From: a virus
Lineage: Duplodnaviria; Caudoviricetes
Virus record (IMG/VR): IMGVR_UViG_3300027516_000001
Span: 1-50,164 of that record
Reading direction: 5' to 3' (one strand)
DNA: 50,164 nt
A program made the translations under genes and the position numbers. The notes beneath the pieces were generated by a model, which was not told where the DNA came from, did no database searches, and worked only from the letters and a program-made list of their open reading frames with translations. Each line of letters starts with the position of its first letter. Positions within the stretch are counted from its first letter, which is position 1. Shown piece by piece: positions 1-34,522 of the stretch.

Positions 1-99
1 GCAGTTCAAACATATCCAAATCCTCCAATTCCAAACCAGCCAAATGCTGTAAACATCGCTCTTGGTACACCTGTAGCAGATGGACGCACTTTGTTCATG
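1..99. repeat. Terminal direct repeat, identical to 50066-50164 (assembly overlap of a circular or circularly permuted genome)
   Basis: Exact 99-nt identity at both ends; an ORF reads through the junction in frame. Confidence 0.97.
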
Positions 100-369: not shown

Positions 370-406
370 AAGACCGCGCTGAGAGCGCAGAAAGGATATC
401 TGAAAA

Positions 407-1438
407 ATGCCTCAAGTTAGGGCGAAGTTTCCTCAACTCATGCAGCCGGGATTAAAGAAGATTTATTTCGATTCTCTCGACTCTCAGCTCAAGGCATCTG
501 ATTATCCGAAGGTCTTCAATGAAGAAAAATCGGATCAGCAGTATGAGCAAGAGCTGGAAATGGCGGGAATCTCTGCTTTACAAGAGAAGCCCGAAGATGC
601 TTCAACTGTTTATACAGAGATGAAGCAAGGTGGAACGAAAAGATTCGTCCATCTCACTTATTCTCTTGGGATTAGAACTTCCCGAGAACTTTACGATGAC
701 GATAAGTATGGCCTAACGGGTAAGAAAGGGCCACAACTTCTTGCGCGGTCTGCTGCTTTTACGCAAGAGATGGTAGCATGGAATGTCTTTAACATGGGAT
801 TCACATCCTCTGTACAAAGTGTTGATGGCAATCCACTCTTCTTCAATCAACATCCACTTCTAGGTGGTGCAGCAGCTACAAACTTGGCGCCTGGAGCAGC
901 TGGTGTAATTTCTCTAGCTGGCACTTGGCCTAATCGTCCAGCTGTTGATGTAGATTTTAGCGTAGCTGGACTTCAACTCGCCACAAATCACGCAGCTCGT
1001 ATGATTGACAATATGGGATTTCCCATTCGTTTGCGTTGGGAGAATCTCATAACTCCTCCAGAGCTACGCTTTCTGGTAAGAGAGATCTTGGGATCTCCTG
1101 GTAAACCTTACACATCAGATAATACAATCAATTCTCTGTTGCCTGAGGATTACAAGAATCTTGAGATTCCGTGGCTCAATTCTCCATCGAATTGGTACTT
1201 AGTCGCGGCGAAAACTGATCATTCAATGCGTGTCTATCATCGTGAGCGTCCTTCTACAGATTTTGACGATGATTTCGACACAGATGCGATCAAACAAAAA
1301 ACTCGCCTGAGAATGAGTGCCGGTGCTACAAGATGGCAAGGAGTCTGGGGCACGCAGGGTCCAGTTATAGCATTTTGCGCCCTCAGTCTTGGCGCAATGC
1401 TAGGTTCTGCGCTAGGCTCATTATTTGGAGCTTGTTGA
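407..1438 (+). CDS. Major capsid protein (Mu gpT-like/HK97-fold family) with a 24-aa hydrophobic C-terminal extension
   Basis: N-terminal QLMQPGL, TYSLGIRTSRELYDDDKY, DGNPLF..QHP and the C-terminal WQGVWGTQGP are typical of this MCP family; follows portal and scaffold. Confidence 0.9.
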   Translation: MPQVRAKFPQLMQPGLKKIYFDSLDSQLKASDYPKVFNEEKSDQQYEQELEMAGISALQEKPEDASTVYTEMKQGGTKRFVHLTYSLGIRTSRELYDDDKYGLTGKKGPQLLARSAAFTQEMVAWNVFNMGFTSSVQSVDGNPLFFNQHPLLGGAAATNLAPGAAGVISLAGTWPNRPAVDVDFSVAGLQLATNHAARMIDNMGFPIRLRWENLITPPELRFLVREILGSPGKPYTSDNTINSLLPEDYKNLEIPWLNSPSNWYLVAAKTDHSMRVYHRERPSTDFDDDFDTDAIKQKTRLRMSAGATRWQGVWGTQGPVIAFCALSLGAMLGSALGSLFGAC

Positions 1439-1449
1439 GGAGTTGAAAA

Positions 1450-2019
1450 ATGGAAGGTAAGGTTTGTATTCAATGTGGACAATTGAAAGCTTTAACATCC
1501 TTTGATGTGTCTTTCGATGGGCAAAATGCTAAGTATGGTTTTACTCAAAGAACGTCATATAAAAGTAGATGCAAAGCTTGTTATGCGTTAAGGGATAGAC
1601 TTGGAACAAAGATGAAGTTCATAGCAATGTATGGAAGTATTTGTATTTGCTGTGGAGAATCTGATCCGAGATTTTTAACTCTTGACCATGTTAAGGATGA
1701 TGGTAATATACACAGAAAAGATTTTGCGTGTAATCAGATTATGGCTGTGGCTATTAAGCAGCATAGACCTGATCTTTACCAGATTCTTTGTTACAATTGT
1801 AATTGTGGAAAAAGTTCAAATGGTGGTACTTGTCCACATAAAGATATAACTCTTCAAGAGTATGTTGATTCTGTAAATAAACTTCTTGAAGTAGTTAAAA
1901 AACCTGCTGTTGGTGAAAAACGAGTTCGTCTTACTGCTCAACAACAGTTAATGGAGCTTTTTAAAAATATACCTCCAGAACAATTGGAGGCGTACTTGAA
2001 ACGTATACACGGTCCATAA
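1450..2019 (+). CDS. Zn-binding HNH (homing-type) endonuclease
   Basis: CxxC...CxxC N-terminus; CICCGE..LTLDH...QILCYNCNCGK...CPH; RBS GAGGAG. Confidence 0.85.
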   Translation: MEGKVCIQCGQLKALTSFDVSFDGQNAKYGFTQRTSYKSRCKACYALRDRLGTKMKFIAMYGSICICCGESDPRFLTLDHVKDDGNIHRKDFACNQIMAVAIKQHRPDLYQILCYNCNCGKSSNGGTCPHKDITLQEYVDSVNKLLEVVKKPAVGEKRVRLTAQQQLMELFKNIPPEQLEAYLKRIHGP

Positions 2020-2042
2020 GCTGCGTGGGCAGTCTTATGTGC

Positions 2043-2089
2043 GAGGGGGAAGAGGTTAACCTGCTCCCCATCTTCTCCCTCTATTTTTT
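2043..2089 (+). terminator. Rho-independent terminator after MCP/HNH
   Basis: GAGGGGGAAGA...TCTTCTCCCTC stem followed by TATTTTTT. Confidence 0.7.
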
Positions 2090-2092
2090 AGG

Positions 2093-2365
2093 ATGAATTC
2101 CATGTCCTATCTTGGACTAAAGCGAAGCTTCTTACAAGGTCCGTGGCATCATTGTGCGAGGTGTGATAGAAAGACGCACATTTCTGAAATGTCATGGCAG
2201 CGTGGATTACTTCTCTGTGATCAATACTGCAAAGATACTGAGTTAATAGGTCAGCGTGATGTAAGAATTGCTCAAGTTTTAGGGGATGGGAAAGAGGAGT
2301 ACGTGCCTGTTCCCAAACTCCGTAATCCTGATACGTTCATGGAAGAAGAGGATTTCATCCTCTAG
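2093..2365 (+). CDS. Small zinc-finger protein of the virion-gene region
   Basis: CARC...W.RGLLLCDQYC motif. Confidence 0.7.
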   Translation: MNSMSYLGLKRSFLQGPWHHCARCDRKTHISEMSWQRGLLLCDQYCKDTELIGQRDVRIAQVLGDGKEEYVPVPKLRNPDTFMEEEDFIL

Positions 2366-2379
2366 AAGGAGATTTGGAA

Positions 2380-3075
2380 ATGCCAAATACTGATCAATAT
2401 TGGCAGGCTGATACTCCGTTTCCCGATCAAGAAATCTTTGTAGGAGCTACGGAGTTTAAAGATTTAGCGGGCGTTGCGACCTTTGCTTCTGCTGGAGCAG
2501 GGTTGCTATCGTTGAATCTTGGCACAGCTGCTGCTGGAAATTTCTTTGCAAATATCACGGCAGCTTTGAAAAGGACAGGAGTTTTAGCAACTCCAGCATT
2601 ACAACAATCGCAATTTGGTACAGGTGCATCTATGCCTGGACCTTCAGGTGTTGCTAACACAACCGATCCTGAAGGAATTCGCGGATTTCCACCTTTTCCA
2701 GCATCTAAACTTCCAACTTTAATTGGAGCGCAAACTGGTCCAATAGTAAAGGGCATTCAGGTAAACTCTGTGGATTTGCTCTATAACATTGGTACTGTAA
2801 ATGCTGGACTTGCTCAAGTTGGACTCACAATTACGAACTTCATCGACAACAATGCTGCGACTCCAACTTCAACAAACATTATCGCTCTTGGAGCGAATGG
2901 AATGCCAACAGCATTTCGCGCGAATTACTATCGTTTCAATGTTCCTGTAACATCTCCAGCGATGGTAACTGCTTTTGATAGTGAGTTAATTGCGAATGTG
3001 AAACTCACTGCTGGATCTGGTGGAACAGTTGTTTTCTATGGAATGGTTGCGAAATGTTCGTTTAATTTTGCATAA
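2380..3075 (+). CDS. Putative virion structural protein
   Basis: RBS AAGGAG; G/A/T/N-rich beta-type composition; structural module. Confidence 0.6.
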   Translation: MPNTDQYWQADTPFPDQEIFVGATEFKDLAGVATFASAGAGLLSLNLGTAAAGNFFANITAALKRTGVLATPALQQSQFGTGASMPGPSGVANTTDPEGIRGFPPFPASKLPTLIGAQTGPIVKGIQVNSVDLLYNIGTVNAGLAQVGLTITNFIDNNAATPTSTNIIALGANGMPTAFRANYYRFNVPVTSPAMVTAFDSELIANVKLTAGSGGTVVFYGMVAKCSFNFA

Positions 3076-3084
3076 GGAGGGACT

Positions 3085-3366
3085 ATGCCTTTACCGGGAA
3101 CAAATGATTACAGCGGGCGAATACTCCGTCTAGTTACAACAGGCACGATTCCTCTTGCGAACTTTAAAGTCAAAGGAGGAGTTTGGACTGGCGGAACTGC
3201 TGCTGATATCTTCTCAATGGTAGATGAGGCGGGAAGACAGTACGATTGGATATTTCCTACCGCTGGAAATGTTCAAATAAGTGAGCTTGGATGGATGTCT
3301 GGTCCTGTTACCATCACAGCTTTGCCTCATGGAGAAGTGCAGCTCTTTCTTGGCACAGGAAAGTAA
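3085..3366 (+). CDS. Small putative structural protein
   Basis: Strong RBS AAGGAGG; position in structural module. Confidence 0.6.
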   Translation: MPLPGTNDYSGRILRLVTTGTIPLANFKVKGGVWTGGTAADIFSMVDEAGRQYDWIFPTAGNVQISELGWMSGPVTITALPHGEVQLFLGTGK

Positions 3367-3402
3367 AGCTTCCCTGAGCGGGGAACTTTTAAGGAAGCAT
3401 CT

Positions 3403-5973
3403 ATGGGACTCTTAAAAACAACCAAACTGGATAACGGAATGGTTGGGTTTGAGTGTATTTATGGTGGTCTAGAAGCGCCATTCGGTGGAATTGATGCTTC
3501 TAGTCCTAACCCTAGATACATTGATCCTAAGTGTTTTGCAGATGCTTCCAATTTTTTGATCATTAATAATGAGCTTTGCTGCTGTTTTACATCTGGCGTA
3601 AATCAATGGCCTAGCTTCGCTCCTGCTGTTCCTCCTTCTGATTGGAATCCTTGGCCGTTAGCTCCTACTTCAGCTAGTCCTGGAATACTTCTAGGAATGG
3701 GAAAATTAGAATGCGAAGCCATAACTAAAACATGGGCGTTATTTAGCTCTCCTAATGTTGATAGCTCAAATTTCTATCATTATAGACTTCTTGTCTGGCA
3801 ATCTGATGGTTTTGCAGCTACAGATGGATCTATTCCAGCGAATAAGATGAGTTATTATGATTTCACAATAGTCGCAAATACAGTGACTTTTCCTGCTCAG
3901 CAGGCTCAATGTGTGCTAACAGTGGGATGGAATGGCTCTCTTACAGCAGTGCCAACGCTTCCAGTAGCAAGTACTCCTGTACCTTGGGATCCAACTAGTC
4001 CTGCATCACCTACTACACCTCCTGCGGCAGATGGTAAAATCTACGAAGTTGATGATTGGAGCACGAATGTAATTGCTCCAGCAGGATATACTCTTAATTT
4101 TGGATTACCATTTTATGCAATATATCCTCCAACGAACGCTGGAGGTACAGCACCTGCGCATCTTCCTGGAATTGCTGATGTTGTAACTGGAATTATAACG
4201 AATATTAATACTTATATTGGCTTGCCGTTTAAAGCAACTGCTGGACCAGGAACTAATCAAATAACGCTTACAGCGTTTACTCAAACTGGATTACCGTCAG
4301 TAGATGGAGCAGCTGGAAATTCTCTACAAATGGATGATGCGCAACCTACTCCTATGCTATTTGGATGGTTTCCTAATGTTGCAAATGCGCCTTTTACAAA
4401 TGGAGCGTTTACATCTACTTATCTTAGTGGCTTTTATAAACCACCAAATCCTTTTACGCAAGCTGCATTTTCAATCAGCGCAACTGCTTTTGAAGGTGGA
4501 GAAGATGCTAAATCTTATGTAAATGGGCCAATTCAAAATCTCACATGGCAAACTGTTGGTAGTAGTTTATATCTTGCTGGCTGGCCTGCTGGATATATAC
4601 TTGAATATAATGATATAACTAAGTATTTTGGCTACATCACGCAGTATCAAGGTGCGCGAGTTCTTTCAAAATTCGCAGGACACTTAATTGCTGTTGGTGT
4701 AATTAATGGTTTAGGCGCAGGTGGGGAAGGAACTAACTTTGATAATACTCAACTATGGTTTGCGTGGAGTAAGGAAGGAGATTTTTCTACATGGAACGCA
4801 GTGGATTCAGGAGGACTCGTTACAGGAGCAGGAGGCGAACAGCTAGCAGATATCTCAGATATGTTGACGGGATTAGTAATCTCCAATTCTGTCGCATTTA
4901 TCTTGAGAGCGGAGGGATTAAGTTACGCCACAGTTCAAGCAAATGCGAGTGTTCCATTCGACGTAAGCCACGTGGCATTATCAAAATTCGGTCAAGGCTG
5001 TCCAAGTACTAGCTTATGGACGCAATTTGATCAATTGGGATTTTATATAGGTCAAACGAATGTTTTCATGCTCTCTCAAGCTCCTCAAGCAATTGGGGAT
5101 AAAATAGTCATGGCTCTGTTTCCTCAATTAATTAATATGGCTAATAGATTAAATGATGTACTTATTGGGCCTCCATATAATTTTCCTCTAGTTGGAAATC
5201 CATCGCCGTTTGAGGATAAATATTACAATAAAGTCTCTGTTGAACCTCTTACTTTTATGAACAATAATCGCGAAAATGTTGACTTTGGAGTGCTTATAGA
5301 TAACTTAATATATATGTTTTCTCCCGTAGATGGAACATGGATGAAGCTAGATATGAATCCAGTCTTACCTCCAGAGTTGATAAGTGCTTTAACTTGGAGC
5401 ATTAAAAAGCTTGTTACGTTACCACTTTGGAGTAGCGTAGGATATGATGGATCATATCAATCAAGAAGAGCACTCGTTTACGCACAACGTTTTACTAGTG
5501 GGCATTATCAAGCTCCAGAACTTTATGATCTTACGCCTCGTTTTTATTCAACAACAACGCAAAGTGGATACATTTGGTTTCCTGCTGAAGAGATATCTCT
5601 TGGAAGAGATATTACAATAGATGCTCTCTATGTGCTTATCAGCGCAGCTCCTGGGATTGAGATTGATTTTCAAATAGATGGATGGCAGAGAGATCAAAAT
5701 GGAAATTCTGCATACGTTCAAGCGGCGTTTACTGGAAGTATTGTCACAGATGCAAGTGCATATCCAGGTTTTTATGAGGAGTATCAAGTCTTTAATGCAG
5801 ACGGCTCTGCCATTACGCTTAAAGCTCCACAACTCAAGATTAATGTTAATCCTCAAAGTTCTTGGGCTGGTTATACTCCTCCTATACCTTATCCTATTTT
5901 TTCGCAACCTTTTATAAAAATTTCGAAAGTTGCAATGTTTGGATCATTTGATCCTAACCAGAGGCCAGTATGA
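3403..5973 (+). CDS. Putative tail hub/nozzle protein (P22 gp10 / T7 gp12-like)
   Basis: 856 aa; N-terminal PFGGID..P; beta-propeller-like segments (LWFAWS..GD..TW, LADIS, FDV..V..GC); podovirus synteny. Confidence 0.65.
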   Translation: MGLLKTTKLDNGMVGFECIYGGLEAPFGGIDASSPNPRYIDPKCFADASNFLIINNELCCCFTSGVNQWPSFAPAVPPSDWNPWPLAPTSASPGILLGMGKLECEAITKTWALFSSPNVDSSNFYHYRLLVWQSDGFAATDGSIPANKMSYYDFTIVANTVTFPAQQAQCVLTVGWNGSLTAVPTLPVASTPVPWDPTSPASPTTPPAADGKIYEVDDWSTNVIAPAGYTLNFGLPFYAIYPPTNAGGTAPAHLPGIADVVTGIITNINTYIGLPFKATAGPGTNQITLTAFTQTGLPSVDGAAGNSLQMDDAQPTPMLFGWFPNVANAPFTNGAFTSTYLSGFYKPPNPFTQAAFSISATAFEGGEDAKSYVNGPIQNLTWQTVGSSLYLAGWPAGYILEYNDITKYFGYITQYQGARVLSKFAGHLIAVGVINGLGAGGEGTNFDNTQLWFAWSKEGDFSTWNAVDSGGLVTGAGGEQLADISDMLTGLVISNSVAFILRAEGLSYATVQANASVPFDVSHVALSKFGQGCPSTSLWTQFDQLGFYIGQTNVFMLSQAPQAIGDKIVMALFPQLINMANRLNDVLIGPPYNFPLVGNPSPFEDKYYNKVSVEPLTFMNNNRENVDFGVLIDNLIYMFSPVDGTWMKLDMNPVLPPELISALTWSIKKLVTLPLWSSVGYDGSYQSRRALVYAQRFTSGHYQAPELYDLTPRFYSTTTQSGYIWFPAEEISLGRDITIDALYVLISAAPGIEIDFQIDGWQRDQNGNSAYVQAAFTGSIVTDASAYPGFYEEYQVFNADGSAITLKAPQLKINVNPQSSWAGYTPPIPYPIFSQPFIKISKVAMFGSFDPNQRPV

Positions 5974-14241: not shown

Positions 14242-15546
14242 ATGCGGATAGCACTATCTTCGTATACTGGTTTAGGAGCATGGTTTGTCCTTCGTTTACT
14301 CTCGGAAGGACATGATGTGGATTATTTTCTTTCTAAATCAGAATACGGAGATGTGCTATCTGGCATTATTCCGAAGCCTAAAGTTTTAAGCATTGACCAC
14401 CGTAGAACTCTACAAGGATTTGGTTATGCATCTTACGCAGGATATGACCTCTCGATATTTGATCTTACGGGAAAAGCTAGACAAGCGGATTCTTCAAAAG
14501 GAGAATGTCCTACCTTTGGAGATGGAACGTTTGAATGCTTACTCGAAGATGATAGAGAAGCAGGGATCAAGTTCATGGAAACCTGTGATATCAAAACGCC
14601 ACCATACCAGAGATTCGATAAGGCTTCAGACGCTAAGAGTTTCATTAGAAAAACTGACAAAAGATATGTCTTCAAGCCCTTTACTCCGAGTGGCAGTACT
14701 CAAGATACTTCTACGACGTATGTATCCAAAGATGCAGAGGATATGATAAAGAACATAGATAATCTCTGCGCAGATGCTAAAGGGATGCCCTTTATCCTAC
14801 AAGAGTATATTAAAGGAATTGAACTCTCAGTTGAAGGATGGTTTAATGGAGAAGATTTCTTCCAAGTTACATGCGATATAGAAGAAAAGAAATTCATGAA
14901 CGATTGCAAGGGACCGAATACGGGATGTTCTGGAAATTTGATCTTCGCGATACATCAAGATATGCATATATATAAGGATACGCTTTTAAAGGCGAAGCCT
15001 CTTTTGCAAAAGATTGGATTCAAAGGAGTTATAGATGTCAATTCGATTGTTACTTCAGGGGAAGCTTATTCGCTTGAATGGGGACCAAGGTTTGGTTATC
15101 TATGTTGCCCTGTGTTTAGTAATATGTATGGCTCTGGTTTTGGAGATTTTCTTCATGCTATTGCATCGGGGAAAACTCCAAACACAAAATGGGCAGCATC
15201 CTTTGGAGCAGCAGTTACTATATCAGTACCCCCATATCCAACAGAAATACGTATGCCTAAAGCAAAGGATCTTCCTATAGAAGGAATTGATCCATATAAC
15301 TTAGATGAACTCCTAAATTGTTATCTCTATGACGCGAAATTAAATGGAAAAGGATTGATTACATCTGGTAATTATGGCTATATAGGCGCTCCTATAGGAG
15401 TTGGAGACTCTATAACAGAAGCGTTCATTAAATGTGATCGGCTTCTTGAACGAATTCAGATTCCTAATATGCAATATAGAACAGATATAGAGAAAGTGTG
15501 TTCAAAGAAATTCTATGATCTTGAGAGGGATGGGTGGTTCTCATGA
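14242..15546 (+). CDS. Divergent PurD (GAR synthetase)-like ATP-grasp ligase
   Basis: FILQEYIKGIELS, KKFMNDCKGPNTGCSG, LEWGPRFG, PPYP and YRTDI align with PurD motifs; lacks GxGGREH and EFNxRFGDPE. Confidence 0.85.
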   Translation: MRIALSSYTGLGAWFVLRLLSEGHDVDYFLSKSEYGDVLSGIIPKPKVLSIDHRRTLQGFGYASYAGYDLSIFDLTGKARQADSSKGECPTFGDGTFECLLEDDREAGIKFMETCDIKTPPYQRFDKASDAKSFIRKTDKRYVFKPFTPSGSTQDTSTTYVSKDAEDMIKNIDNLCADAKGMPFILQEYIKGIELSVEGWFNGEDFFQVTCDIEEKKFMNDCKGPNTGCSGNLIFAIHQDMHIYKDTLLKAKPLLQKIGFKGVIDVNSIVTSGEAYSLEWGPRFGYLCCPVFSNMYGSGFGDFLHAIASGKTPNTKWAASFGAAVTISVPPYPTEIRMPKAKDLPIEGIDPYNLDELLNCYLYDAKLNGKGLITSGNYGYIGAPIGVGDSITEAFIKCDRLLERIQIPNMQYRTDIEKVCSKKFYDLERDGWFS

Positions 15547-18422
15547 AACTTCGTTATCTTCTTCTTTTGCTTTTTGCGACTCAAGCGTTAGCTCAGAGTG
15601 CTACTATCTCTGGCACTGTTACGGATACAGATAGTCAATTATGGTTTGGTGGAACATGGGGATATGAATTTTATCCTAATCCATCGTATCCGAACTTGAG
15701 TTCTTATTATGTTGGAAATGTTCCTTTAAGTACGTATTATACTAAACCTATTACAGGGCAAATGGATGCTACGCTTGGAACATTTACAATGAATAATTTG
15801 ATTCAAAATAATCTTATATCTCCTTCAGGTTCTCAGTGGACTTTGAAGTTCTGTCCTCAAGCATCCTCTGGATGTGGATCATTTCTTATAACAATGAATG
15901 TTCCATCCATAACAGGATCAACAATAATCAATGGAATTACATTTAATGCTCTCATTACTTCTCGAATTACAGCGCCTCGCTTTGAAGCCGTAGCTGGAGC
16001 TTTTGGTTATAGCGATCTAGAAGCGTCAGGTGGAAATCAATTAGTAGCTGGCTCTACGTATTGGAATGTTACGCAAGCTTGTCAGAGATATTATGTAGCG
16101 TTTCCTCCAGGATGGAGTTGTGGAGGTGGAGGAGGTAGCAGCGGGACCGTATCCGGGCAGGCTGCGAACACCATTCCTCTTGGCACCAGTTCAACCGTAA
16201 TCGGAAATCAGTCGCACATAACAGACAATGGCGCCACCGTAGCCTCGTCGGAGCCTTTGACCGCGCCTAGCATGACCGGGGCTCATTACGATACAGGCGG
16301 CGCGGTCTTCAATGTCAAGGCATATGGAGCGACCGGCAACGGATCGACAGACGATACTTCATCTATAAATGCGGCCATTGCTGCACTGAACACGGCTGGA
16401 CGAGGTGCCCTTTTCTTCCCGGAAGGCACCTACTACACTGCGGCCTGTAACTTCACCACCATTTCGGCTCAGGTCACGATTTTTGGAGTTGGGGCCAGTA
16501 ACGAGTGGTACTCGTCACCTAATTCCCAGATCAATTGTGCTTCGACAACTGCGAACCTGTTCACGCTGGCGGGATACGCCAACACTGTCAGAGACATGGG
16601 ATTCCACAATACGAACGGCGGCACCATCGGAACCTCGACTGCCGGAGCGGCTATCTATGTCGTGACCACAAATCCGTTAGGTAGAACTAACATCGAGAAT
16701 AGTTCCTTTTACGGGTTTTATGACGGCGTCTATGAGTCAGTCGGCTCTGCCTGGCACATCACTGGAAATCACTTTCTAAACCAGACCAGGTACTGTGTCA
16801 ATGTTAATAACACCGTGGTTACCGATGACGGGGACTGGGTCATCGCACAGAACTACTTCGGAAACACGACTAACTCGAGCAGTCCCACTCAGGCCGCAAT
16901 TGCTATTCTGGGTTCCGGCGGCGCGAAGATGCATCACAACAAGATCAATGCGTGGTTCGTGGATGGAATCTATCAGAACGCGACCGGGTCTTCGCAGACT
17001 CTGATCCAGGACAACGACATCGAAAACGTCACGCGCTACGCAATTAACATGACGTCGACCTGGCCGATGGTGATGATTGAAGACAACTATATCGCTGGCG
17101 CGGCGAACGAGCCGGATATCTACTTCGGGGCCATCGTTGGGAACGTGATTATCACCGGCAACTTGCTGGAGACCTATGCCACGGGAGCGATGACTCAATA
17201 CGCGGTTCAGTTCCCCAGCGCCGGAATGACTTTTACCGCAGTAACAAACAACGTCGTGAACGCTTTTTTTGCTGGTCAGGTGAACTACGGAACATACGCC
17301 ACGCCTCCATATCTTCAAATTGGCTGCGGAGACTCAAGTTGTAATGATTCGCCCACTCTCAGGCTGTACAGCCAGGTGACCGGCTCCTCTTTCTATAGTC
17401 AAATCGTTTCTTCGTGGGCTGGTAACGGTCTTACTTTCAACCTGCCGCGCACTCTCAGCGGCAAAGGATACCACTTCCAGGACAGCGGAACGACAGACTT
17501 ATTTGTTATTGACAGCGCCTCTGGCGCGGGTACATTCAAGGGCGGCATTTCCAGCCAGGCTGCCACCGAGGATGACGGTATAGGTAATGCAAGCTGGAAA
17601 GGTAACACGTTCCAGCTTGGGTGCACGGCCTCTACTTGCGGTAACAACGTTACTCTAACGTTTGGCTCATACGTCGCGGGAACTGGTGCTGTTACCAACG
17701 GTATTACTTCTAGTTGGGCTGGTGATGGTATCGACTTTACACTGCCGCGAAACCTGCAAGGCAAGGGATATTACTTCAAAAACAACGGTGGCAGCGCAAC
17801 GCCTGTATTCTTCGACGCTACTGCGCCGAACGGCAGCTTCCAGGTACAACAGACTTACGGACAGGTCAACATTGGACAGATGGAGTCCTACACGATAGGA
17901 ACGGCCATCGCTTCAGCCGCCTCGATTAGTCCTACAAATTCTGTAATACACATCACCGGCACGACGACAGTGAACACCATCAATCCTTACGGTGCTGGCG
18001 GGCAGGGTTGTTACCTCTCTGGAGAGTCGTGCAAGTTGACGCTCATTCCAGACGGAGCCTGGGCGCTTGGCACAAGCGGAAACATTGCTCAGGCCATGCA
18101 GTCGGTGGTCGGCGTCCCGATCACGCTCTATTACGACAACAACACCAGCAAATGGTATCCGGAGGGCGGGTCGAATCTTATTGCCGGTGTAGCAACGTTG
18201 GTATCTGGCACGGCTACGGTCAGTACAACATCGGCATGTGCTGTCGCCGCCGGGTCCTGCGAATATATCTTGTCACGCTGTGGTCCTAACAGTTCCACCG
18301 CAATCGGTTCGCTGTCTACGGGTACGATCACAGTCGGCACGAGCTTTGTTATTAACTCACTTTCAGCTACTAACACCGTAGCGACGGGCGACCTAAGTAC
18401 AGTCTGTTGGAAGATCAACTAA
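15543..18422 (+). CDS. Tailspike/receptor-binding protein with pectate-lyase-like beta-helix and N-terminal signal-peptide-like sequence
   Basis: FNVKAYGATGNGSTDDTSSINAAI...LFFPEGTY (Pectate_lyase_3 motif) and parallel beta-helix repeats; ATGA overlap with ligase stop. Confidence 0.85.
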   Translation: MKLRYLLLLLFATQALAQSATISGTVTDTDSQLWFGGTWGYEFYPNPSYPNLSSYYVGNVPLSTYYTKPITGQMDATLGTFTMNNLIQNNLISPSGSQWTLKFCPQASSGCGSFLITMNVPSITGSTIINGITFNALITSRITAPRFEAVAGAFGYSDLEASGGNQLVAGSTYWNVTQACQRYYVAFPPGWSCGGGGGSSGTVSGQAANTIPLGTSSTVIGNQSHITDNGATVASSEPLTAPSMTGAHYDTGGAVFNVKAYGATGNGSTDDTSSINAAIAALNTAGRGALFFPEGTYYTAACNFTTISAQVTIFGVGASNEWYSSPNSQINCASTTANLFTLAGYANTVRDMGFHNTNGGTIGTSTAGAAIYVVTTNPLGRTNIENSSFYGFYDGVYESVGSAWHITGNHFLNQTRYCVNVNNTVVTDDGDWVIAQNYFGNTTNSSSPTQAAIAILGSGGAKMHHNKINAWFVDGIYQNATGSSQTLIQDNDIENVTRYAINMTSTWPMVMIEDNYIAGAANEPDIYFGAIVGNVIITGNLLETYATGAMTQYAVQFPSAGMTFTAVTNNVVNAFFAGQVNYGTYATPPYLQIGCGDSSCNDSPTLRLYSQVTGSSFYSQIVSSWAGNGLTFNLPRTLSGKGYHFQDSGTTDLFVIDSASGAGTFKGGISSQAATEDDGIGNASWKGNTFQLGCTASTCGNNVTLTFGSYVAGTGAVTNGITSSWAGDGIDFTLPRNLQGKGYYFKNNGGSATPVFFDATAPNGSFQVQQTYGQVNIGQMESYTIGTAIASAASISPTNSVIHITGTTTVNTINPYGAGGQGCYLSGESCKLTLIPDGAWALGTSGNIAQAMQSVVGVPITLYYDNNTSKWYPEGGSNLIAGVATLVSGTATVSTTSACAVAAGSCEYILSRCGPNSSTAIGSLSTGTITVGTSFVINSLSATNTVATGDLSTVCWKIN

Positions 18423-18461
18423 GAAAGAAAGGGCTCCTGGCGAGATTGAAAGGACATTAAA

Positions 18462-18869
18462 ATGTTAGTTTTGTTCTTTTTTGTAGTAACAATGGCACAT
18501 CAGGCAAAACTTTATTATCAAAACACAGCTTGCACTACAACTACGCCTTGTCAATTACAAGTATATAGAGCAACTTGTTCTTCAAGTACGAAATGTCCTG
18601 CATTCAATTTAAACTCACCTTCGTGGAAACAATTATCCTCCGGTTCTGCTACTGCAATCATAACTACAACAGGAACTAAATGGACTGTTGTAGATAATGA
18701 TCCTGCCTTGCAAGATAACACAACGTATGCATATTGCGCTACGAATTCATTCACTTCAGCACCTACTGTGCTTTCGAATTGTGGATATGGCTGGAAAGGA
18801 ACTACTGGAGCAGCAAATGCGAACATACCATCAACTCCTACTGTGGGCACTGGCAACTCCGTTAATTAG
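18462..18869 (+). CDS. Secreted-type Cys-rich Fn3-like single-domain protein
   Basis: Hydrophobic N-terminus; CxxxxxCxLQVYRAxCxxxxxCP ... D..L...TTY.Y.ATN. Confidence 0.75.
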   Translation: MLVLFFFVVTMAHQAKLYYQNTACTTTTPCQLQVYRATCSSSTKCPAFNLNSPSWKQLSSGSATAIITTTGTKWTVVDNDPALQDNTTYAYCATNSFTSAPTVLSNCGYGWKGTTGAANANIPSTPTVGTGNSVN

Positions 18870-19986
18870 TCAAACAATTCCTCCAGCTCCGCAAATCCAA
18901 GGTGTAAGTGGAGCTGTAGGCGTAAACACCTTAACCGTACATGAACCTATGTGTTTATATGGAGGAACTGCGTGTGGTTTAAGCGATTGTGGATGTTGGT
19001 GGCAGATATATAGAGCGCAATGTTCTTCAAGCACAAGTTGTCCTGCAATAACATCTCCAGCTGGAACTTATATAAATCCCACAAATACTGCTGTCTCTTC
19101 ATCCTCTACAGATAGCGCAGGAACAGGAACTAATGTTGTATTTACGGATACAGATTCTGCTCTTGTTTCAGGCACTACTTGGCAATACTATATGACAGTA
19201 AACTATGCACAATACACGCCTGTCACTTATAGTCCTGCCTCAAATATTAGCGGTCCTGTAGTATTAGGGGGCACGACTTCTGCTACTACGATATTTTCTG
19301 TGTATTTAGATTATGACAATGCTTCATGTAATACTGGAACAGCGTGTAAACTCTCTACATGTACATGTTCTACAAATGTATATAAAGCTATATGTTCTTC
19401 ATCTACAGCATGTCCTACATATCCTAACGGAACATGGAGCAAACTTGCTTCTGTGGATTCTTCAAATAATTCTTATGTAAATACAACAGTGAGTGCTACA
19501 AATACGCATTTTCATTATAAAGATGATGGCGCTATCGTGAATAATCTTAAATATAATACAATCTACACCTACGTTGCAACCAATACCTACACAGCAGATC
19601 CAACTTCAACAGAGAGTAAACCAGGTTCTCCTGTAATTAAAGGAACTCCTGATCATATGGCTGCTATAAATTGGAGCAATCCAAGTTGTAACACAACAAC
19701 GCCTGCATGTACTTTTCAAGTTTATCGCGTAGTTTGTACTAGCTCAAACTCTTGTCCTACGTATCCTTCAGGAACTTGGACAAAATTAAATATGACATCT
19801 GGTTTAACCACTACTATAACTACACAAGGTACTTCATGGAGATACGCTGATATGGACCCTACTTTAGCACCTTCTACAACGTATTCGTGGGTAGCAACTG
19901 CTTCTTGGAATAGTACTACTTCTTCCCCAGCGTCAGCACCTTTTGTCGGAACAACAATTTCAACACTAACAAGGAGAGTAAAATGA
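18817..19986 (+). CDS. Secreted-type protein with three Cys-rich Fn3-like repeats
   Basis: Start moved to ATG 18817 (GGAG RBS, signal-like MRTYHQLLLWALATPLISQ); three copies of the motif. Confidence 0.75.
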   Translation: MRTYHQLLLWALATPLISQTIPPAPQIQGVSGAVGVNTLTVHEPMCLYGGTACGLSDCGCWWQIYRAQCSSSTSCPAITSPAGTYINPTNTAVSSSSTDSAGTGTNVVFTDTDSALVSGTTWQYYMTVNYAQYTPVTYSPASNISGPVVLGGTTSATTIFSVYLDYDNASCNTGTACKLSTCTCSTNVYKAICSSSTACPTYPNGTWSKLASVDSSNNSYVNTTVSATNTHFHYKDDGAIVNNLKYNTIYTYVATNTYTADPTSTESKPGSPVIKGTPDHMAAINWSNPSCNTTTPACTFQVYRVVCTSSNSCPTYPSGTWTKLNMTSGLTTTITTQGTSWRYADMDPTLAPSTTYSWVATASWNSTTSSPASAPFVGTTISTLTRRVK

Positions 19987-20453
19987 AAATAGCGTTTCTT
20001 CTGATTCTCATGCTTTTTGGTCAAGCTAGGAAACCAATGGTATCTCCGCCTCAGGTGGGAGTTACATCTTCAACCGGGCCTCACCAAGCTGTTCTAAATT
20101 GGAGCAATCCCTCATGTACTACAAATGCGCAATGTAGTCTTCAAGTATACAGAGCGCAATGTACATCTATAACTTCCTGCCCAGTATATTCTCCAGGCTC
20201 TGGCTCATTTACTACGTTAGTAATGACAACGAACTTGGTTCCTACTGTTGGCGCAAGTGGAACATCGTGGGTCTATACAGACTCTACGCAAAACGCTGCG
20301 ATGCAAGATTCTACTACGTATGTGTGGGTAGCTACAAACACATATGTAAATGGCTCACAACCATCAGGTGCTAGCACTGCGTATAGCGGAACCACAAACA
20401 ATGGTACTCCTTCGGCGCCAACTTTGAGCGCGAATGGGAATAGTGTGAACTAA
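19983..20453 (+). CDS. Secreted-type Cys-rich Fn3-like single-domain protein (paralog of 18462)
   Basis: Signal MKIAFLLILMLFGQA; same motif; same GNSVN C-terminus. Confidence 0.75.
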   Translation: MKIAFLLILMLFGQARKPMVSPPQVGVTSSTGPHQAVLNWSNPSCTTNAQCSLQVYRAQCTSITSCPVYSPGSGSFTTLVMTTNLVPTVGASGTSWVYTDSTQNAAMQDSTTYVWVATNTYVNGSQPSGASTAYSGTTNNGTPSAPTLSANGNSVN

Positions 20454-20863
20454 TGAAACTTCTCATTATTCTCCTACTTCTCCAATCTGGATTTGCGATT
20501 AATAAGAATGGACCTCGCGCTGGAATAGAGCTGCGTCCTGATGATCCTCATCGAAATAACGGAGATTTGATGGTTAAATGTATTCAACAAAGTAACGGCG
20601 GAGGATGTAATGTACGCTTTACTCCAGGTGAATACTATATCTATAAACCAATTGAATTTCCGTCAGGCGTTCTAGATGCAAATCTAGAAGGAGTGCTCAT
20701 TCATGTTTGTGCTAAAATGGGATTTGTATTTGGCACAATAGCTATAGGTCCGTGGGGTTCTGCATATATTCATCACATAGCTGTAATTTCCAATGTACCT
20801 TGTGGAACATGGAGGCCAGAATATGCGTATCAACCATTTTTTGAGGTTATTAGAAGGCGTTAA
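20453..20863 (+). CDS. Signal-peptide protein, possibly a beta-helix cap fragment
   Basis: MKLLIILLLLQSGFA; GG..VRFTPGEYYIYKPI resembles a pectate-lyase-like N-cap. Confidence 0.55.
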   Translation: MKLLIILLLLQSGFAINKNGPRAGIELRPDDPHRNNGDLMVKCIQQSNGGGCNVRFTPGEYYIYKPIEFPSGVLDANLEGVLIHVCAKMGFVFGTIAIGPWGSAYIHHIAVISNVPCGTWRPEYAYQPFFEVIRRR

Positions 20864-21042
20864 ATGAAAGGAGGGTGAGTATAGCCTATGATTAATTCGA
20901 TGCTCAGAGCTAAGGATCAGGTGAACCGAATTCTTTGGGCATCGAAAATATTGGATACTACCAGAGGGTGTTTGCTACTCAATTGCTGGGTAGAGATATT
21001 GGTTCTATAGCACCCTCTGCTATCATATATAGGAGATACAAA

Positions 21043-21159
21043 ATGAATCGCAGACTCTTTCTACTAGGAATTCTAAGCTTCATTGCTCAAGCTCAGAATC
21101 CTAAACCTAAACCACCCCCCGCTCCTAAACCAGGACCAGGGACTAACACGATTTCATAG
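21043..21159 (+). CDS. 38-aa peptide: twin-Arg/Sec-like signal followed by Pro/Lys-rich tail
   Basis: RBS AGGAG; MNRRLFLLGILSFIAQA-QNPKPKPPPAPKPGPGTNTIS. Confidence 0.55.
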   Translation: MNRRLFLLGILSFIAQAQNPKPKPPPAPKPGPGTNTIS

Positions 21160-21168
21160 GAGGAAAAA

Positions 21169-21774
21169 GTGCCTCCGATTAAGCCACCAACTGAAATTGA
21201 GTTGTTGTCTGCGGCTGTACTTTTGTTGCAGAAGTTAGTTGAGCAAACGAATGAAATTGAACCTCTCCTAAAGAGAATATCTGCAAAGCAAGATGAAACA
21301 AATGCTATTTTGCGGAAAATTCTCTCTGCTGTCAGCCCGAAACCTCCTGCTGACAAAAAATTAACTACGATCAAACTCGTTTTCACGGAGATTCCAATGT
21401 CAACGAATCCAATTCCTATTACGCCTCCAGTTGTCTTAACCCAAGCTGGTCAGCAAGTTCAAGCGCAAGTTGTAGGCTATGATCAGTTTGGAAACCCGTG
21501 GACTGGCACGATGCCAGATTACACTCTCACAAACGATAATGAGAGCGCCGCTACGCTTGATCCAATCTCAGGATTGGTTACAGCAGTAGCAGATGGCGTT
21601 TCCAATATCACTGGCGAACTTACAACTGCTGAAGGTCTTGATCTCACAGATACAGAGAGTGTGACTGTGAATATTGCAGCAGAACCGCCAGTTCTAACTA
21701 CCGTGAAGGTTGTCTTCACGCAACCGGCAGGAGCTTTAAGCTCGAAAGTGAAGAAGCCTGTAGTTAAGAGATAA
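21169..21774 (+). CDS. Ig-like (Big_2) domain protein with N-terminal coiled coil
   Basis: DQFGNP...T.DN..AAT.D..SGLVTAVADG...IT; RBS AGGAGG, GTG start. Confidence 0.7.
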   Translation: MPPIKPPTEIELLSAAVLLLQKLVEQTNEIEPLLKRISAKQDETNAILRKILSAVSPKPPADKKLTTIKLVFTEIPMSTNPIPITPPVVLTQAGQQVQAQVVGYDQFGNPWTGTMPDYTLTNDNESAATLDPISGLVTAVADGVSNITGELTTAEGLDLTDTESVTVNIAAEPPVLTTVKVVFTQPAGALSSKVKKPVVKR

Positions 21775-22010: not shown

Positions 22011-22200
22011 TATACACCCCCATTGGTTTGTTTGTAAGAGTGAGAAGATCATCAATGGTAACTTTGTTACCTGTGATTATATCTTCCCAAACTTTGGTTG
22101 TGTCTTCGTCGAGCTTATACTCTAAGACAATTACTCTTAGAGCATTTTGCTCCAACGTAGTCAAGTGGCGAATGCTGTTCATTTTCCTGCTCCTTTTCAA
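21868..22200 (-). CDS. Hypothetical protein overlapping the small basic protein in another frame
   Basis: Coupled to the groES-like stop; open frame. Confidence 0.45.
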   Translation of the reverse strand: MKRSRKMNSIRHLTTLEQNALRVIVLEYKLDEDTTKVWEDIITGNKVTIDDLLTLTNKPMGVYNAFEEGQIEESRIREYQGDDGIWPSTETSSSSISRNSEEIRKEEEIL

Positions 22201-22937
22201 TTGGCTTGAATAAGGAAATCAAACGCCGCGAGATCTTCACCTCCTGTGATTTTACACCACGCTTGTGAAGCATCCATGATCTTGAACATCAATCCTGCTT
22301 TCGTAGGAATCATACTTCCAGCGTATGGTCCAAAGAGAATCCTATCTCCTACTTTAAAGTGCAGCTTCTCAATATCGCATTGCGATCCAATAGAAACTAC
22401 AACTCCTGTAGTCGGTAGATTCTTACTGTTATCTGGAAGATGAAGTAAGGCTCCAAGTCCCTTACATTCGGGACATGTTTCATCGTGTTGTACGGAAATA
22501 TAATTTCCGTTACACTCGGGACAGGGCATATTAACGCGAGCGTTAGCAACATCTTCACCCAAAGACTCTTTGATTGTTTGAATTTCATCTGGTCCATATC
22601 TCACTCCTGCGTGTCCACTCGCTTCACAATTGCAAAGAATGTGTATTGACTTTTTTCCTTTGCATTTTCTACATTCATACCCGCTTTTAAAAACATCGAT
22701 GGAAACAAGAATCTTTTCTCCGAGAGATTCGAATTTGTACGGAAACCCTGGAAAAGAGACTTCGTTTGAGTTGTCGAGAATAAGCTCAGTCGTACTTTTA
22801 CTTGCATTTTCCGCATCGATCCTTTCTTGCAGCTCTCTTACTCCCTTTGCGAGAGCTTCTGTTCCACTCGCAGCACTGGTTGACTTATGAATGGAATGTT
22901 TTGTCTCTCCGATTTGGTAATTGATTGTGTCATTCAT
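22197..22937 (-). CDS. groES: Co-chaperonin GroES/Cpn10-like protein with inserted DnaJ-type zinc finger
   Basis: SLGEKILV...LHLPD..K..PTTGVVVSIG...KVGDRILFGPYAG...KIM is the Cpn10 core; insert has CxxCxG repeats. Confidence 0.8.
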   Translation of the reverse strand: MNDTINYQIGETKHSIHKSTSAASGTEALAKGVRELQERIDAENASKSTTELILDNSNEVSFPGFPYKFESLGEKILVSIDVFKSGYECRKCKGKKSIHILCNCEASGHAGVRYGPDEIQTIKESLGEDVANARVNMPCPECNGNYISVQHDETCPECKGLGALLHLPDNSKNLPTTGVVVSIGSQCDIEKLHFKVGDRILFGPYAGSMIPTKAGLMFKIMDASQAWCKITGGEDLAAFDFLIQAN

Positions 22938-27824: not shown

Positions 27825-28024
27825 AGATACTTCTCCTGAAGAAATAGAAGCTTTTCAAAATCATTACCTTTTATTTCATGATACTTTGTTCGGCTTATAG
27901 AGAGGAGGAAGCGTATATCTCTGGCGCTTATGTTCCTTCTCTTTCTTGGAGAAGCTAATACGACAGAAAATTCTAATAGGATTATGAACGTTTTTGCTGC
28001 TCTTTCGCTTGGCGTCATTTTCAT
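27821..28024 (-). CDS. Hypothetical protein
   Basis: ATGA-coupled both sides. Confidence 0.5.
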   Translation of the reverse strand: MKMTPSERAAKTFIILLEFSVVLASPRKRRNISARDIRFLLSISRTKYHEIKGNDFEKLLFLQEKYL

Positions 28025-28191
28025 TCTCCCTCGAAAATTTCAACTCTGTCAAAATTCTTGAACTCTTTCTTATGCTCCTCACACGTATCCACAAACTCAA
28101 AAGGGTGGTCATGACCATACTGAAGACGATAAATCGCTTCTTTCTCACAACGCACCCCCTTCGAGTTAATGAACGTACATTGCCATCTCAT
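28021..28191 (-). CDS. 56-aa C-C-C-H zinc-finger protein (not in ORF track)
   Basis: Hand translation MRWQCTFINSKGVRCEKEAIYRLQYGHDHPFEFVDTCEEHKKEFKNFDRVEIFEGE; ATGA overlaps at both ends. Confidence 0.7.
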   Translation of the reverse strand: MRWQCTFINSKGVRCEKEAIYRLQYGHDHPFEFVDTCEEHKKEFKNFDRVEIFEGE

Positions 28192-33132: not shown

Positions 33133-33366
33133 CTAGAAGTTCTTTTCTTTTTCTTTGTTCTTATTAGCCTTAGGAATAAAATCCTTCCAAACAGCAGTTT
33201 GTCTCTCTTGCACGTCACAACATTTTGTACAAAAGAAGACAGTAAATACCAGAGTATCTGGACCTTGTATCTTACGATAAGTATCCAGAGTCTGATAAGC
33301 ATGTCCTTCACGTTCGCATGAAGTTTTTGTTAGTTTAGGAGAAGACATATGTCCTCCGTATTTCAT
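33133..33366 (-). CDS. Small Cys/His protein
   Basis: C....H...C..C. Confidence 0.5.
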   Translation of the reverse strand: MKYGGHMSSPKLTKTSCEREGHAYQTLDTYRKIQGPDTLVFTVFFCTKCCDVQERQTAVWKDFIPKANKNKEKEKNF

Positions 33367-34522
33367 TATGCTGCGATGTTACAAGAGCAATATCCTGCGT
33401 ACTGACATACGCAGAATGTGCTCTCTTTAGAACATCTGAGCCTGCAATTTTGTAGAGATAATCTCCTTTTCCTAACAAACATTCAGCTCCATTTTCATCC
33501 AATACTACTCTTGAGTCAGCCATTGTTGGTAATTTGAAGCAAATTCGCGCAGGAAAGTTAGCTTTCAAATCACCACTCAAAACTCTCACAGAAGGTCTTT
33601 GTGTGGCAATAATGAGATGTATTCCTGCTGCGCGAGAAATAGCAGCAATTTGTTTCGTTAGCATCTCTATACTTGTAGGACGATCCTTCTTTGGAGTTCC
33701 CGCCCAAAGTATCTCATCTTGTTGGATAATATCCGCAAACTCATCCATGATGATTACTTTGTACTTGAGTTTCTGTCCCATTCCAAGGTTATTCCACTCA
33801 GCTATATTGCGAGCATAACCGCTCATTAACTGAGTTCTCCTTCGTACTTCAGCGAGAGCACTTTCGAGAGATGCACGCAAATCCTCAACTTCGCGGATAA
33901 CTGAAGAAACGTGCTCTAGATCCTCAAAGAATACTAGATCAAGTTGCTTTGTATCCACTAGCGTAAAGCTAAGCTCTTTTGGAGATTTGAATAGAGCCAA
34001 GCTCGCTATAAATTGCGAAGTTGCGACTGATTTTCCTGAGCCAGTTGTACCTGCCATGAGCAAGTGAGGTTGAGTAGCAAGATCAGCGTACAGATAATCT
34101 CCTCTAGTATTCTGTCCCATAAGTAGGGGCAACTGCATATCTCTAACTTGAGGAGATGTAAGTAATTCATGCAAGCAAGAATCAAATCGTATGGTGATAC
34201 GATCTTCTCTCGGTACTTCAATTGCAACGAGTCCAGCATTTCGCTCGATTCTAACGCTCTCTACATTAAGCGTTCCAGCGAGTTCCTCTTCTTTATTCAA
34301 TATCTTACTGAATAAGGAACCCTCTGATGGTTTAAAGAAAAAGGTCCGAAGAATCGGACCTTCCTCAAGTTTCTCAAAGAATGCAGCGAATCCTAAAATA
34401 AGCATCTTGTGAGATAGCTTACCTATTTGTTGCTGCACCTCAATCGGCAGAGTATCTGCTTTCGAATTCAGATTCATCGGCATCTTTGTGGTTTCCTTTG
34501 CAGGGTAAGGTTCGTGGATCAT
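33335..34522 (-). CDS. ftsK: FtsK/SpoIIIE-like DNA translocase ATPase (no membrane domain seen)
   Basis: PHLLMAGTTGSGKS, VIIMDEFAD, RAAGIHLIIATQRPS, KANFPARI, GAECLLGKGD. Confidence 0.93.
   Translation of the reverse strand: MIHEPYPAKETTKMPMNLNSKADTLPIEVQQQIGKLSHKMLILGFAAFFEKLEEGPILRTFFFKPSEGSLFSKILNKEEELAGTLNVESVRIERNAGLVAIEVPREDRITIRFDSCLHELLTSPQVRDMQLPLLMGQNTRGDYLYADLATQPHLLMAGTTGSGKSVATSQFIASLALFKSPKELSFTLVDTKQLDLVFFEDLEHVSSVIREVEDLRASLESALAEVRRRTQLMSGYARNIAEWNNLGMGQKLKYKVIIMDEFADIIQQDEILWAGTPKKDRPTSIEMLTKQIAAISRAAGIHLIIATQRPSVRVLSGDLKANFPARICFKLPTMADSRVVLDENGAECLLGKGDYLYKIAGSDVLKRAHSAYVSTQDIALVTSQHNEIRRTYVFS

Follow-up and report, generated by a model that had tools for sequence, protein, structure and literature searches.

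Signal-peptide-like leaders on the spike and neighbouring late genes of an uncultured tailed phage, and a possible periplasmic step in virion assembly

The window analysed here, the whole 50,164-bp stretch of IMG/VR record IMGVR_UViG_3300027516_000001, looks like the complete genome (~50 kb) of an uncultured tailed phage, and its last late genes form a conserved 'exported module'. Six consecutive plus-strand genes between positions 15543 and 21159, namely a 959-aa spike gene and the small genes o2 to o6, start with Sec-type leaders, and all six N-termini are present as the initial annotation of this DNA had quoted them (Table 1). The reading that we favour, and to which we give about an even chance, is that the spikes would be exported, cleaved and oxidised, and would then dock on spike-less particles at lysis. 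The broader proposal, that a very large uncultured group of tailed phages assembles its virions in two compartments, with exported spikes and FN3-like accessories joining at lysis, falls in our judgement a little short of evenly balanced. We infer export, cleavage, disulfides and, above all, virion attachment from the leaders, from conservation and from the co-variation of cysteines.

The leaders were called by a home-made rule (a charged n-region, an uncharged hydrophobic core and small residues at −3 and −1) and not by SignalP. The rule flags all six genes and, elsewhere in the window, two more among 77 crude open reading frames (ORFs), both membrane-protein-like (27876-28148 and 38603-38845); the chance of six consecutive flagged genes among ~70 is near 5e-7. 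In a control with two cultured podophages it flags 0/70 and 1/56 annotated coding sequences, and none of the large tail proteins. The capsid and tail genes of the window have no leader by this rule, and the comparison with the rest of the genome that the initial annotation had proposed confines the leaders to this gene block.

Five of the six leaders are textbook examples. Lysine or arginine precedes the h-region in all proteins except o2; an uncharged hydrophobic h-region of ~7–15 residues (mean Kyte-Doolittle 2.2–4.0) is present in 6/6, as are small or neutral residues at −3/−1 and a +1 residue other than proline, and the +1 residue is glutamine in four (spike, o3, o4 and o6). The proposed o2 leader, 12 residues without K/R, is weak taken alone and gains its support from homologues with good leaders; that of contig L067 reads MKLLLLILLLAPKIATVS, followed by HQATLYYQ, with one K in the n-region (MKLLLL...), and the start of the L068 homologue is uncertain. 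Two details of the initial annotation had to be revised. The o4 cleavage that it placed at GQA↓R (the arrow marks the cut) falls at LFG↓Q in homologues. The o6 leader, described as 'twin-Arg-like', does carry an RRxF motif of the twin-arginine translocation (Tat) type (NRRLF in the window and TRRQF in L066 fit; L068 has RK), but Sec is more likely than Tat, because the h-region is strongly hydrophobic and the predicted mature part has only 21 residues. Comparison with homologues supports all six leaders.

Wrong start codons or chance hydrophobic stretches could imitate such a block, and the short o2 leader, together with o3 and o6 beginning inside longer ORFs, might be taken that way. We find this hardly credible. 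Most starts have either a ribosome-binding motif or an overlap with the preceding gene: a Shine-Dalgarno-like motif precedes o2, o3, o4 and o6, and stop and start codons overlap between the upstream ATP-grasp gene and the spike (ATGA), between o3 and o4 (ATGA) and between o4 and o5 (TAATG), overlaps that suggest translational coupling. The o3 start lies 53 nt inside o2, in another frame. The leaders are, moreover, conserved in homologues from many contigs, and no start codon lies between leader and conserved domain.

The mature parts had been described as rich in paired Cys and in Ser/Thr, a description that holds, with less Ser/Thr in o5 and o6. Cysteine accounts for 47/1721 mature residues (2.73%) in the six proteins versus 47/6521 (0.72%) in the other plus-strand late genes; the counts in o2 to o5 are all even (6, 16, 4 and 4), and the spacings are tight (C-x4-C, C-x5-6-C and C-x6-C). 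Ser plus Thr make up 22–32% of the spike and o2 to o4, 5.8% of o5 and 14.3% of o6, compared with 12% elsewhere.

The spike leader and the domain behind it recur throughout a large family. In an alignment of 14 spike homologues a leader followed by Gln is found in 14/14; the Gln and the pair Cys104/Cys111 are invariant, and a second pair, Cys180/Cys193, is common. A word-indexed search returned 8 relatives only, all metagenomic, the four with contig data on contigs of 6–49 kb, and scanning viral contigs for patterns from the complete spike, from o3 and from p650 gave none. An exhaustive profile search with the mature N-domain matched 2,240 protein clusters (defined at 50% identity) at E<=1e-3, of which 587 at <=1e-30. 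Leader and Cys counts cover the best 150 of these 2,240 hits: 145 of the 150 representatives have a signal-peptide-like leader, 4 begin at the domain and 1 looks truncated, with a median leader length of 20 residues in the 99 that an initial motif scan picked up. In the 146 representatives whose leader has at least 10 residues, Ala occupies position −1 in 127, Gly in 11 and Ser in 5, and Gln follows at +1 in 144. All of the 150 but the leaderless P0157 have the Cys104/Cys111 pair (149/150). Across the spike alignments the leader sequences diverge freely while the mature start is conserved, as expected for cleaved signals. The gene context is conserved as well. The ATP-grasp gene is the left neighbour of the spike in L015, L019, L022, L026, L030, G001, G002, G004 and G005, and downstream of it relatives encode one to three large proteins, most of them (L015 excepted) with a leader and then ...A↓QTTxVxATVTDSD.

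The same counts bear on the idea that the leaders are uncleaved signal anchors. The proteins would then be tethered to the inner membrane, facing the periplasm, until depolarisation or breakage freed them, as happens with signal-arrest-release (SAR) endolysins. The h-regions are strongly hydrophobic (the Kyte-Doolittle means given above), and o6 and its L066 homologue do resemble an anchor with a Pro-rich tether. We nevertheless regard signal anchors as improbable: −1 is A, G or S in 143/146, the conserved Gln marks a fixed mature start, which fits cleavage, and SAR domains are weakly hydrophobic, unlike the Leu-rich cores seen here.

Among 50,697 phage records none matches the N-domain in sequence, and no cultured phage in that set carries it; nor does it occur in 400 further genomes from the phylum to which G004, the genome with an integrated copy, belongs. 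All N-domain genomic contexts inspected are phage-size contigs or phage-like inserts, and the profile offers a new marker by which to find receptor-binding proteins in an uncultured group of phages. An AlphaFold2 (AF2) model of the domain is a beta-sandwich with a mean predicted local distance difference test (pLDDT) score of 68. Its fold matches are unspecific, being transthyretin/CarboxypepD_reg-like and pilin CnaB-like (VIA-align Z 6–6.8; best Foldseek E 4.8e-3).

The strongest evidence here that the leaders would drive export and disulfide formation is their co-variation with cysteine. P0157, on a 48-kb contig, has neither leader nor Cys pair (a metagenome scan with it returned only relatives of its C-terminal part). 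The sister phage represented by L015 (93% complete) has three tandem N-domain genes downstream of its ATP-grasp gene, the product of which is 48% identical to that of the window; all three copies are leaderless, and A/S, S/A and S/A replace the two cysteines. Whole-protein Cys content is 1.99% in the 145 leader-bearing representatives (minimum 0.95%), 0.90% in 5 leaderless proteins (maximum 1.01%) and 0.62% in the three L015 copies. The L015 paralogues are probably a single loss event, and the independent events are probably few overall. Joint loss of leader and cysteines goes in the direction predicted by export and periplasmic oxidation, and is predicted neither by chance hydrophobic N-termini nor by purely post-lysis oxidation. 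The earlier proposal of export and oxidative folding thus appears well supported by comparison, through conserved leaders and joint loss, and not by experiment.

Joint loss also speaks against a cytoplasmic route, in which the N-termini would not be used for export, the proteins would fold and assemble in the cytoplasm, the leader would end up buried or be clipped off by a protease of the phage, and oxidation of the cysteines would follow lysis. A classical n/h/c leader with an AXA-like site would be hard to keep from SecA or the signal recognition particle, and the leaders sit only on this block and not on capsid or tail genes. Such a route has some precedent, in that disulfide-rich leaderless virions exist (the Jabs preprint, 10.64898/2026.07.24.740622) and that capsid proteins of P. 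gingivalis phages with predicted signal peptides are read as cleaved by the prohead protease (PMC10367356), as far as the available parts of both texts go. We consider it very unlikely for the proteins described here.

Evidence for virion attachment comes from the architecture of the spike. Its beta-helix matches PF12708 at 36.3 bits and its C-terminus matches PF24146 (K1-lyase_C-like) at 34.2 bits (cut-off 27 for both), each match covering a short stretch only; two PHROG tail spike families are matched at 6e-8 and 1e-7, and PDB sequence matches are to mannuronan epimerase and pectate lyase N-termini. Relatives place the same N-domain before other beta-helices, SGNH/GDSL-like esterase motifs, and collagen-like or fibre repeats; in the leaderless P0185 (704 aa), collagen-like G-x-y repeats at ~170-330 follow right after the domain. 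N-domain genes often stand in two or three tandem copies. One anchor domain with swappable enzymes, often in tandem, is a hallmark of phage receptor-binding proteins. The order of the structural genes, which we take to resemble that of T7-like podoviruses, is capsid, a 231-aa protein (p231), an 856-aa beta-rich protein (p856), three helix-rich proteins of 563–971 aa, the ATP-grasp enzyme and the spike, so that the spike closes the module as its last large gene, behind helix-rich genes of internal-protein-like type. We predict that the 959-aa spike is the receptor-binding tailspike of this phage, a prediction that stands evenly poised between right and wrong. Leaderless orthologues at the same locus imply that the partner of the N-domain would not require prior export, and together with the modular build and the gene position they make us lean towards virion attachment rather than the use at the cell surface that the initial annotation had offered as the alternative.

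The spike is in these respects like the podovirus tailspikes of P22/Sf6/HK620 and K1F/K1-5, in which a conserved N-terminal particle-binding domain is joined to a swappable beta-helix enzyme, the gene ends the structural module and some phages have 2–3 tandem spikes; the K1-lyase_C-like C-terminus of the window spike is a further likeness. To our knowledge, these podovirus tailspikes have no signal peptide and fold in the cytoplasm. The family of the window spike differs from them in its cleavable-looking leader, the Gln at +1 and the conserved Cys pairs.

All of the export evidence would apply equally if the spike-like enzymes and FN3-like binders were exported and never joined the virion. 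They would then cut or mask the capsule, exopolysaccharide (EPS) or O-antigen of the infected cell, with receptor destruction, a block to superinfection or the freeing of progeny from debris or biofilm as the effect, and the true receptor binder would be another protein. Pfam and PHROG scans of the window revealed no other candidate receptor-binding protein, and a free enzyme needs no 180-aa phage-specific N-domain across 2,240 clusters. Tandem copies of one N-domain with different enzymes are the pattern of multi-spike phages, and leaderless orthologues could not reach the envelope before lysis. Small FN3-like proteins are, on the other hand, untypical as tail parts, the N-domain fold is common in secreted proteins, L068 has a leaderless fibre-like gene beside leader-bearing large proteins, and the available portions of two papers offer bacterial precedents in WceF (PMC7949094) and the Bdellovibrio MAT fibres (PMC10769870). 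We judge this, the main alternative, possible, though doubtful; if true, it would reveal a large, little-described reservoir of phage-encoded secreted glycan-degrading enzymes.

The evidence on the host is contradictory: the Gln at +1 points one way and the cellular genome links another. Short MKK-type leaders also fit Bacteroidota. Glutamine at +1 after the signal peptidase I cut is the Bacteroidota Q-rule (PMC5837995, in the part of the article available), which the spike, o3, o4 and o6 families match, and it recurs in several unrelated leader-bearing proteins of related contigs. The cellular genome links, from an alignment scan with the large terminase (TerL) that covered no Bacteroidota genomes, are to Pseudomonadota metagenome-assembled genomes only. 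One relative makes up an entire 47.7-kb contig, which belongs to a bin with the title Sulfuriferula. The second, an insert 48.6 kb long with 45% GC, lies in a 638-kb contig titled Gammaproteobacteria, whose GC is 62%, and cleanly interrupts a gene for a TonB-dependent receptor there (G004 contig 2, ~175,815-224,377; loci L041-L043). The junctions show only a short, imperfect repeat, and the ends of the insert correspond to ~32.4-33.3 kb of the window, between an HNH gene and the FtsK-like gene. In ~440 kb of the flanks of this insert, Gln is at +1 in 3/38 leaders found by the home-made rule. Either way the host would have two membranes, and the leader would therefore deliver the protein to the periplasm.

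In the reading that we favour, the spike would be a Sec preprotein whose leader takes it across the inner membrane late in infection. Cleavage by signal peptidase I at ALA↓Q would expose a Gln as the new N-terminus, which may cyclise, and the closely spaced Cys pairs would be oxidised in the periplasm. Finished spikes would stay in that compartment during the formation, in the cytoplasm, of DNA-filled particles that lack spikes. Once holin and lysis merge the compartments, docking of the N-domain on the tail would complete assembly. The FN3-like o2 to o4, together with o5 and o6, would be exported with the spike and could serve as glycan-binding or adaptor accessories of spike or particle. Israel, Anderson and Levine reportedly added P22 tailspikes to spike-less heads in vitro in 1967, and this makes a post-lysis last step physically plausible.

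Several points weigh against docking of exported spikes at lysis. We know of no described route from the periplasm onto a tailed-phage particle. The leaders were called by a heuristic and by computation only, three other leaderless clusters keep the Cys pair, and the modelled N-domain sandwich is a common fold, frequent also in ordinary secreted proteins. A tail shared by leaderless and exported copies is not demonstrable, because in the leaderless phage G409 p856 is detectable only at 8.9e-4 over 40 residues and p231, the adaptor candidate, is undetectable. The AF2 model of p856, the nozzle candidate, has a pLDDT of 36.3 and is unusable, and PDB sequence searches with p856 and p231 came back empty. 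The window phage is probably podovirus-like, a morphotype read from gene order and distant capsid relatives only. In L068 (minus-strand reading, 20-5416) a leaderless 339-aa fibre-like gene precedes leader-bearing proteins of 969 and 489 aa without the N-domain; leader-bearing large proteins may thus be accessory in some phages, and, in addition, leader-bearing spike-like proteins are not limited to one domain family. Lastly, disulfide-rich virions can do without leaders, as the accessible text on Jabs indicates (10.64898/2026.07.24.740622).

Textbook tailed-phage assembly is wholly cytoplasmic, and assembly in two compartments, if proven, would be categorically new. Known Sec-dependent proteins of tailed phages comprise spanins, SAR and signal-peptide endolysins, and morons that are lipoproteins or outer-membrane proteins (Lom, Bor, Llp and Cor); they are alike in their use of host Sec and differ in being lysis, exclusion or small unknown proteins, not spikes. 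Filamentous phage coat proteins are virion proteins that host machinery exports or inserts before assembly. Filamentous phages, however, belong to another virus realm and are extruded through the membrane, whereas the window encodes an HK97-fold capsid and a terminase. Full-text literature searches, mostly judged at overview level, gave no account of conserved signal peptides on the receptor-binding proteins of tailed phages. In the available parts of two reports, P. gingivalis phages carry leader-bearing genes without assigned function whose products have Gln behind the predicted cut (PMC10367356), and a huge-phage preprint describes leader-bearing sortase substrates and outer-membrane proteins, not spikes.

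Three further systems, each compared through the accessible part of its source, share features with the module. Bdellovibrio MAT fibres (PMC10769870) have a signal peptide, an invariant beta-rich N-domain without clear PDB homologue and a long fibre with variable tips, some of them tailspike-like; they are chromosomal and sit on the predator's own surface, whereas here the genes are phage genes at the position of a receptor-binding protein, and the comparison is by architecture only. Pantoea stewartii WceF (PMC7949094) is exported, a trimeric glycanase whose beta-helix has the fold of a tailspike and which trims the EPS of its own producer; it differs in that its gene is bacterial and lies in an EPS cluster, its leader is of the Tat type and the phage-family N-domain is absent. 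The Jabs virion (10.64898/2026.07.24.740622, which cites Milano, Pam3 and Qbeta) likewise has Cys-rich extracellular parts and raises the question of when and where disulfides form, a site that the preprint calls an open question; its available text does not contain the term 'signal peptide' and proposes oxidation after lysis, whereas the leader described here would offer a catalysed periplasmic route.

If the favoured reading is true, there would be a second assembly route, used by a family of at least 2,240 protein clusters at 50% identity, and a concrete answer as to where disulfide-linked virions are oxidised. Phages could then use disulfide-dependent, perhaps calcium-dependent, secreted-enzyme modules as spikes, and lysis would be the trigger of the final maturation step. 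Such spikes may misfold under cytoplasmic expression, for instance in depolymerase or phage-therapy work, and gene callers or annotators may discard them as 'secreted host-like'.

The small genes behind the spike form a cassette, o2-o3-o4-(o5/o6)-o7, parts of which are carried by contigs L066, L067 and L068. Together, o2, o3 and o4 hold five copies of a ~100-aa domain with two short disulfide-like loops per copy. No Pfam family, fn3 included, matches them even at E up to 1; the FN3-like leads come from the ESM Atlas, with feature scores of 0.89–0.92 and template-modelling scores of 0.59–0.64 to FN3-bearing clusters, among them phage tail-protein FN3 domains. The o4 family has 28 homologues with 48–72% identity in the alignment, on contigs up to 53 kb; 26/29 sequences pass the leader test, and A, G or S followed by Q marks the cut in 22/26. 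The o3 leader is conserved in P0036, L067 and L068, and the o5 homologue in L067 has a hydrophobic N-terminus. One ORF of L068 joins an o6-like leader and linker to a domain judged o5-like by eye, without alignment, and the o6 homologue in L066, of 41 aa, has the same GPGTNTIS end. Homologues of o7 occur in L067 and L068, and o7 is conserved beside o5/o6 in relatives. The more distant G002 has two leader-bearing spikes and then a leader-bearing FN3-like protein.

The C-termini of these proteins are conserved too. A nearly invariant ...NNGTPxAPTLxSxGNSVN ends both o4 (20400-20453) and o2 (18810-18869; alignment A5), and these free ends, like the GPGTNTIS of o6 and its relatives, suggest docking or sorting motifs. 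As type IX secretion system (T9SS) cargo the proteins can be rejected, since no C-terminal sorting domain of the Por_Secre_tail type was found in 13 proteins with NCBIfam/Pfam at E up to 1. In the 53-nt o2/o3 overlap (18817-18869) the ...GNSVN tail of o2 also encodes, in the other frame, most of the o3 signal peptide. The overlap is kept in three phages, namely the window, L067 (~405-457) and L068 (minus-strand reading, ~5815-5867). A programmed frameshift from o2 into o3 was rejected, because o3 has its own start, a GGAG motif and the conserved leader noted above. One TAG and three codons separate o6 from the in-frame o7 (21157-21171). Read-through of this TAG was likewise rejected, as L066 contains an o6 but no o7, and homologues of o7 begin at start codons of their own. 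In addition, o6 is no lipoprotein or o-spanin candidate, since o6 and its L066 and L068 homologues lack a lipobox Cys. We also discarded the block as a moron with its own promoter and terminator (13 promoter-like sites versus 16.0 expected, and no useful terminator).

Table 1. Coordinates of the proposed exported module and of other features of the window (aa, amino acids)
Feature	Position	Strand	Leader and following residue	Description
ATP-grasp (GARS-like) gene	14242..15546	+		Pfam GARS_A 6e-12; stop overlaps spike start (ATGA)
Spike	15543-18422	+	MKLRYLLLLLFATQALA, then Q	
Spike signal peptide (predicted)	15543..15593	+	MKLRYLLLLLFATQALA	Predicted cleavage ALA↓Q
Mature spike N-terminal domain (~180 aa)	15594..16127	+		Beta-rich; alignments A1, A2, A4
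Spike variable catalytic/binding part	16308..18422	+		Pectate-lyase-like beta-helix, two C-x4-C repeat modules, K1-lyase_C-like C-terminal domain (aa 880-958)
o2	18462..18869	+	MLVLFFFVVTMA, then H	Short leader and one FN3-like domain, 6 Cys; C-terminal tail ...GNSVN
o3	18817..19986 (internal ATG 18817 of ORF 18697-19986)	+	MRTYHQLLLWALATPLIS, then Q	Leader and three FN3-like repeats, 16 Cys
o4	19983..20453	+	MKIAFLLILMLFG, then QA	Leader and one FN3-like domain, 4 invariant Cys, nearly invariant C-terminal GNSVN
o5	20453..20863	+	MKLLIILLLLQSGFA, then I	Leader and 121-aa domain, 4 Cys, no known family
o6	21043..21159 (ATG 21043 of ORF 20935-21159)	+	MNRRLFLLGILSFIAQA, then Q	38 aa: leader and Pro/Lys-rich 21-mer ending GPGTNTIS
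o7	21169..21774	+		Leaderless, last of cassette; Pro-rich linker, weak Big_2-like Ig domain (Pfam Big_2 0.0083, below cut-off)
HK97-type capsid gene	407-1438			PHROG 371, 9e-12; Pfam Mu-like gpT
HNH endonuclease gene	1450-2019			Directly after major capsid gene, within structural module
Large terminase	43644-45512			PHROG 38, 1e-46

The relatives of the window in IMG/VR are contigs of 47–51 kb, two of them with terminal repeats. Its closest cultured phages, which include Roseobacter, Pelagibacter, Alcaligenes and Caulobacter phages, share less than 30% capsid identity, and terminase identity to cultured phages is ~26% at best. Tape-measure, sheath and tail-tube families were not seen in Pfam/PHROG scans of the window proteins, nor an integrase among the window ORFs scanned against Pfam and PHROGs, and the 50,164 bp contain no tRNA. 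The opposite strand carries family-A DNA polymerase pieces, an FtsK-like gene and a GroES-like gene. The FtsK/SpoIIIE-like translocase (33335-34522, −; Pfam 7.8e-33, PHROG 6e-79) is encoded beside the phage's own terminase. The GroES-like product (22197-22937, −), a protein of 246 aa, combines a GroES (Cpn10) domain with a zinc-finger region of the DnaJ type (CXXCXGXG). A DnaJ-like gene (35898-36440) and a Clp_N-like gene (38842-39225) stand apart from it.

No recognisable endolysin family was found among the window ORFs scanned, and a lysozyme-like ORF that ends the G004 insert has no counterpart in the window. A possible lysis block at 38603-39337 (−) encodes three proteins, one of 40 aa with an N-terminal transmembrane segment, one of 127 aa and one of 80 aa that has several hydrophobic segments. 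The G+C content of the spike gene (16001-18000) is 0.52 versus 0.41 for the genome, which is partly due to its Gly/Ala/Thr/Ser-rich composition, and the spike module may have been acquired from elsewhere.

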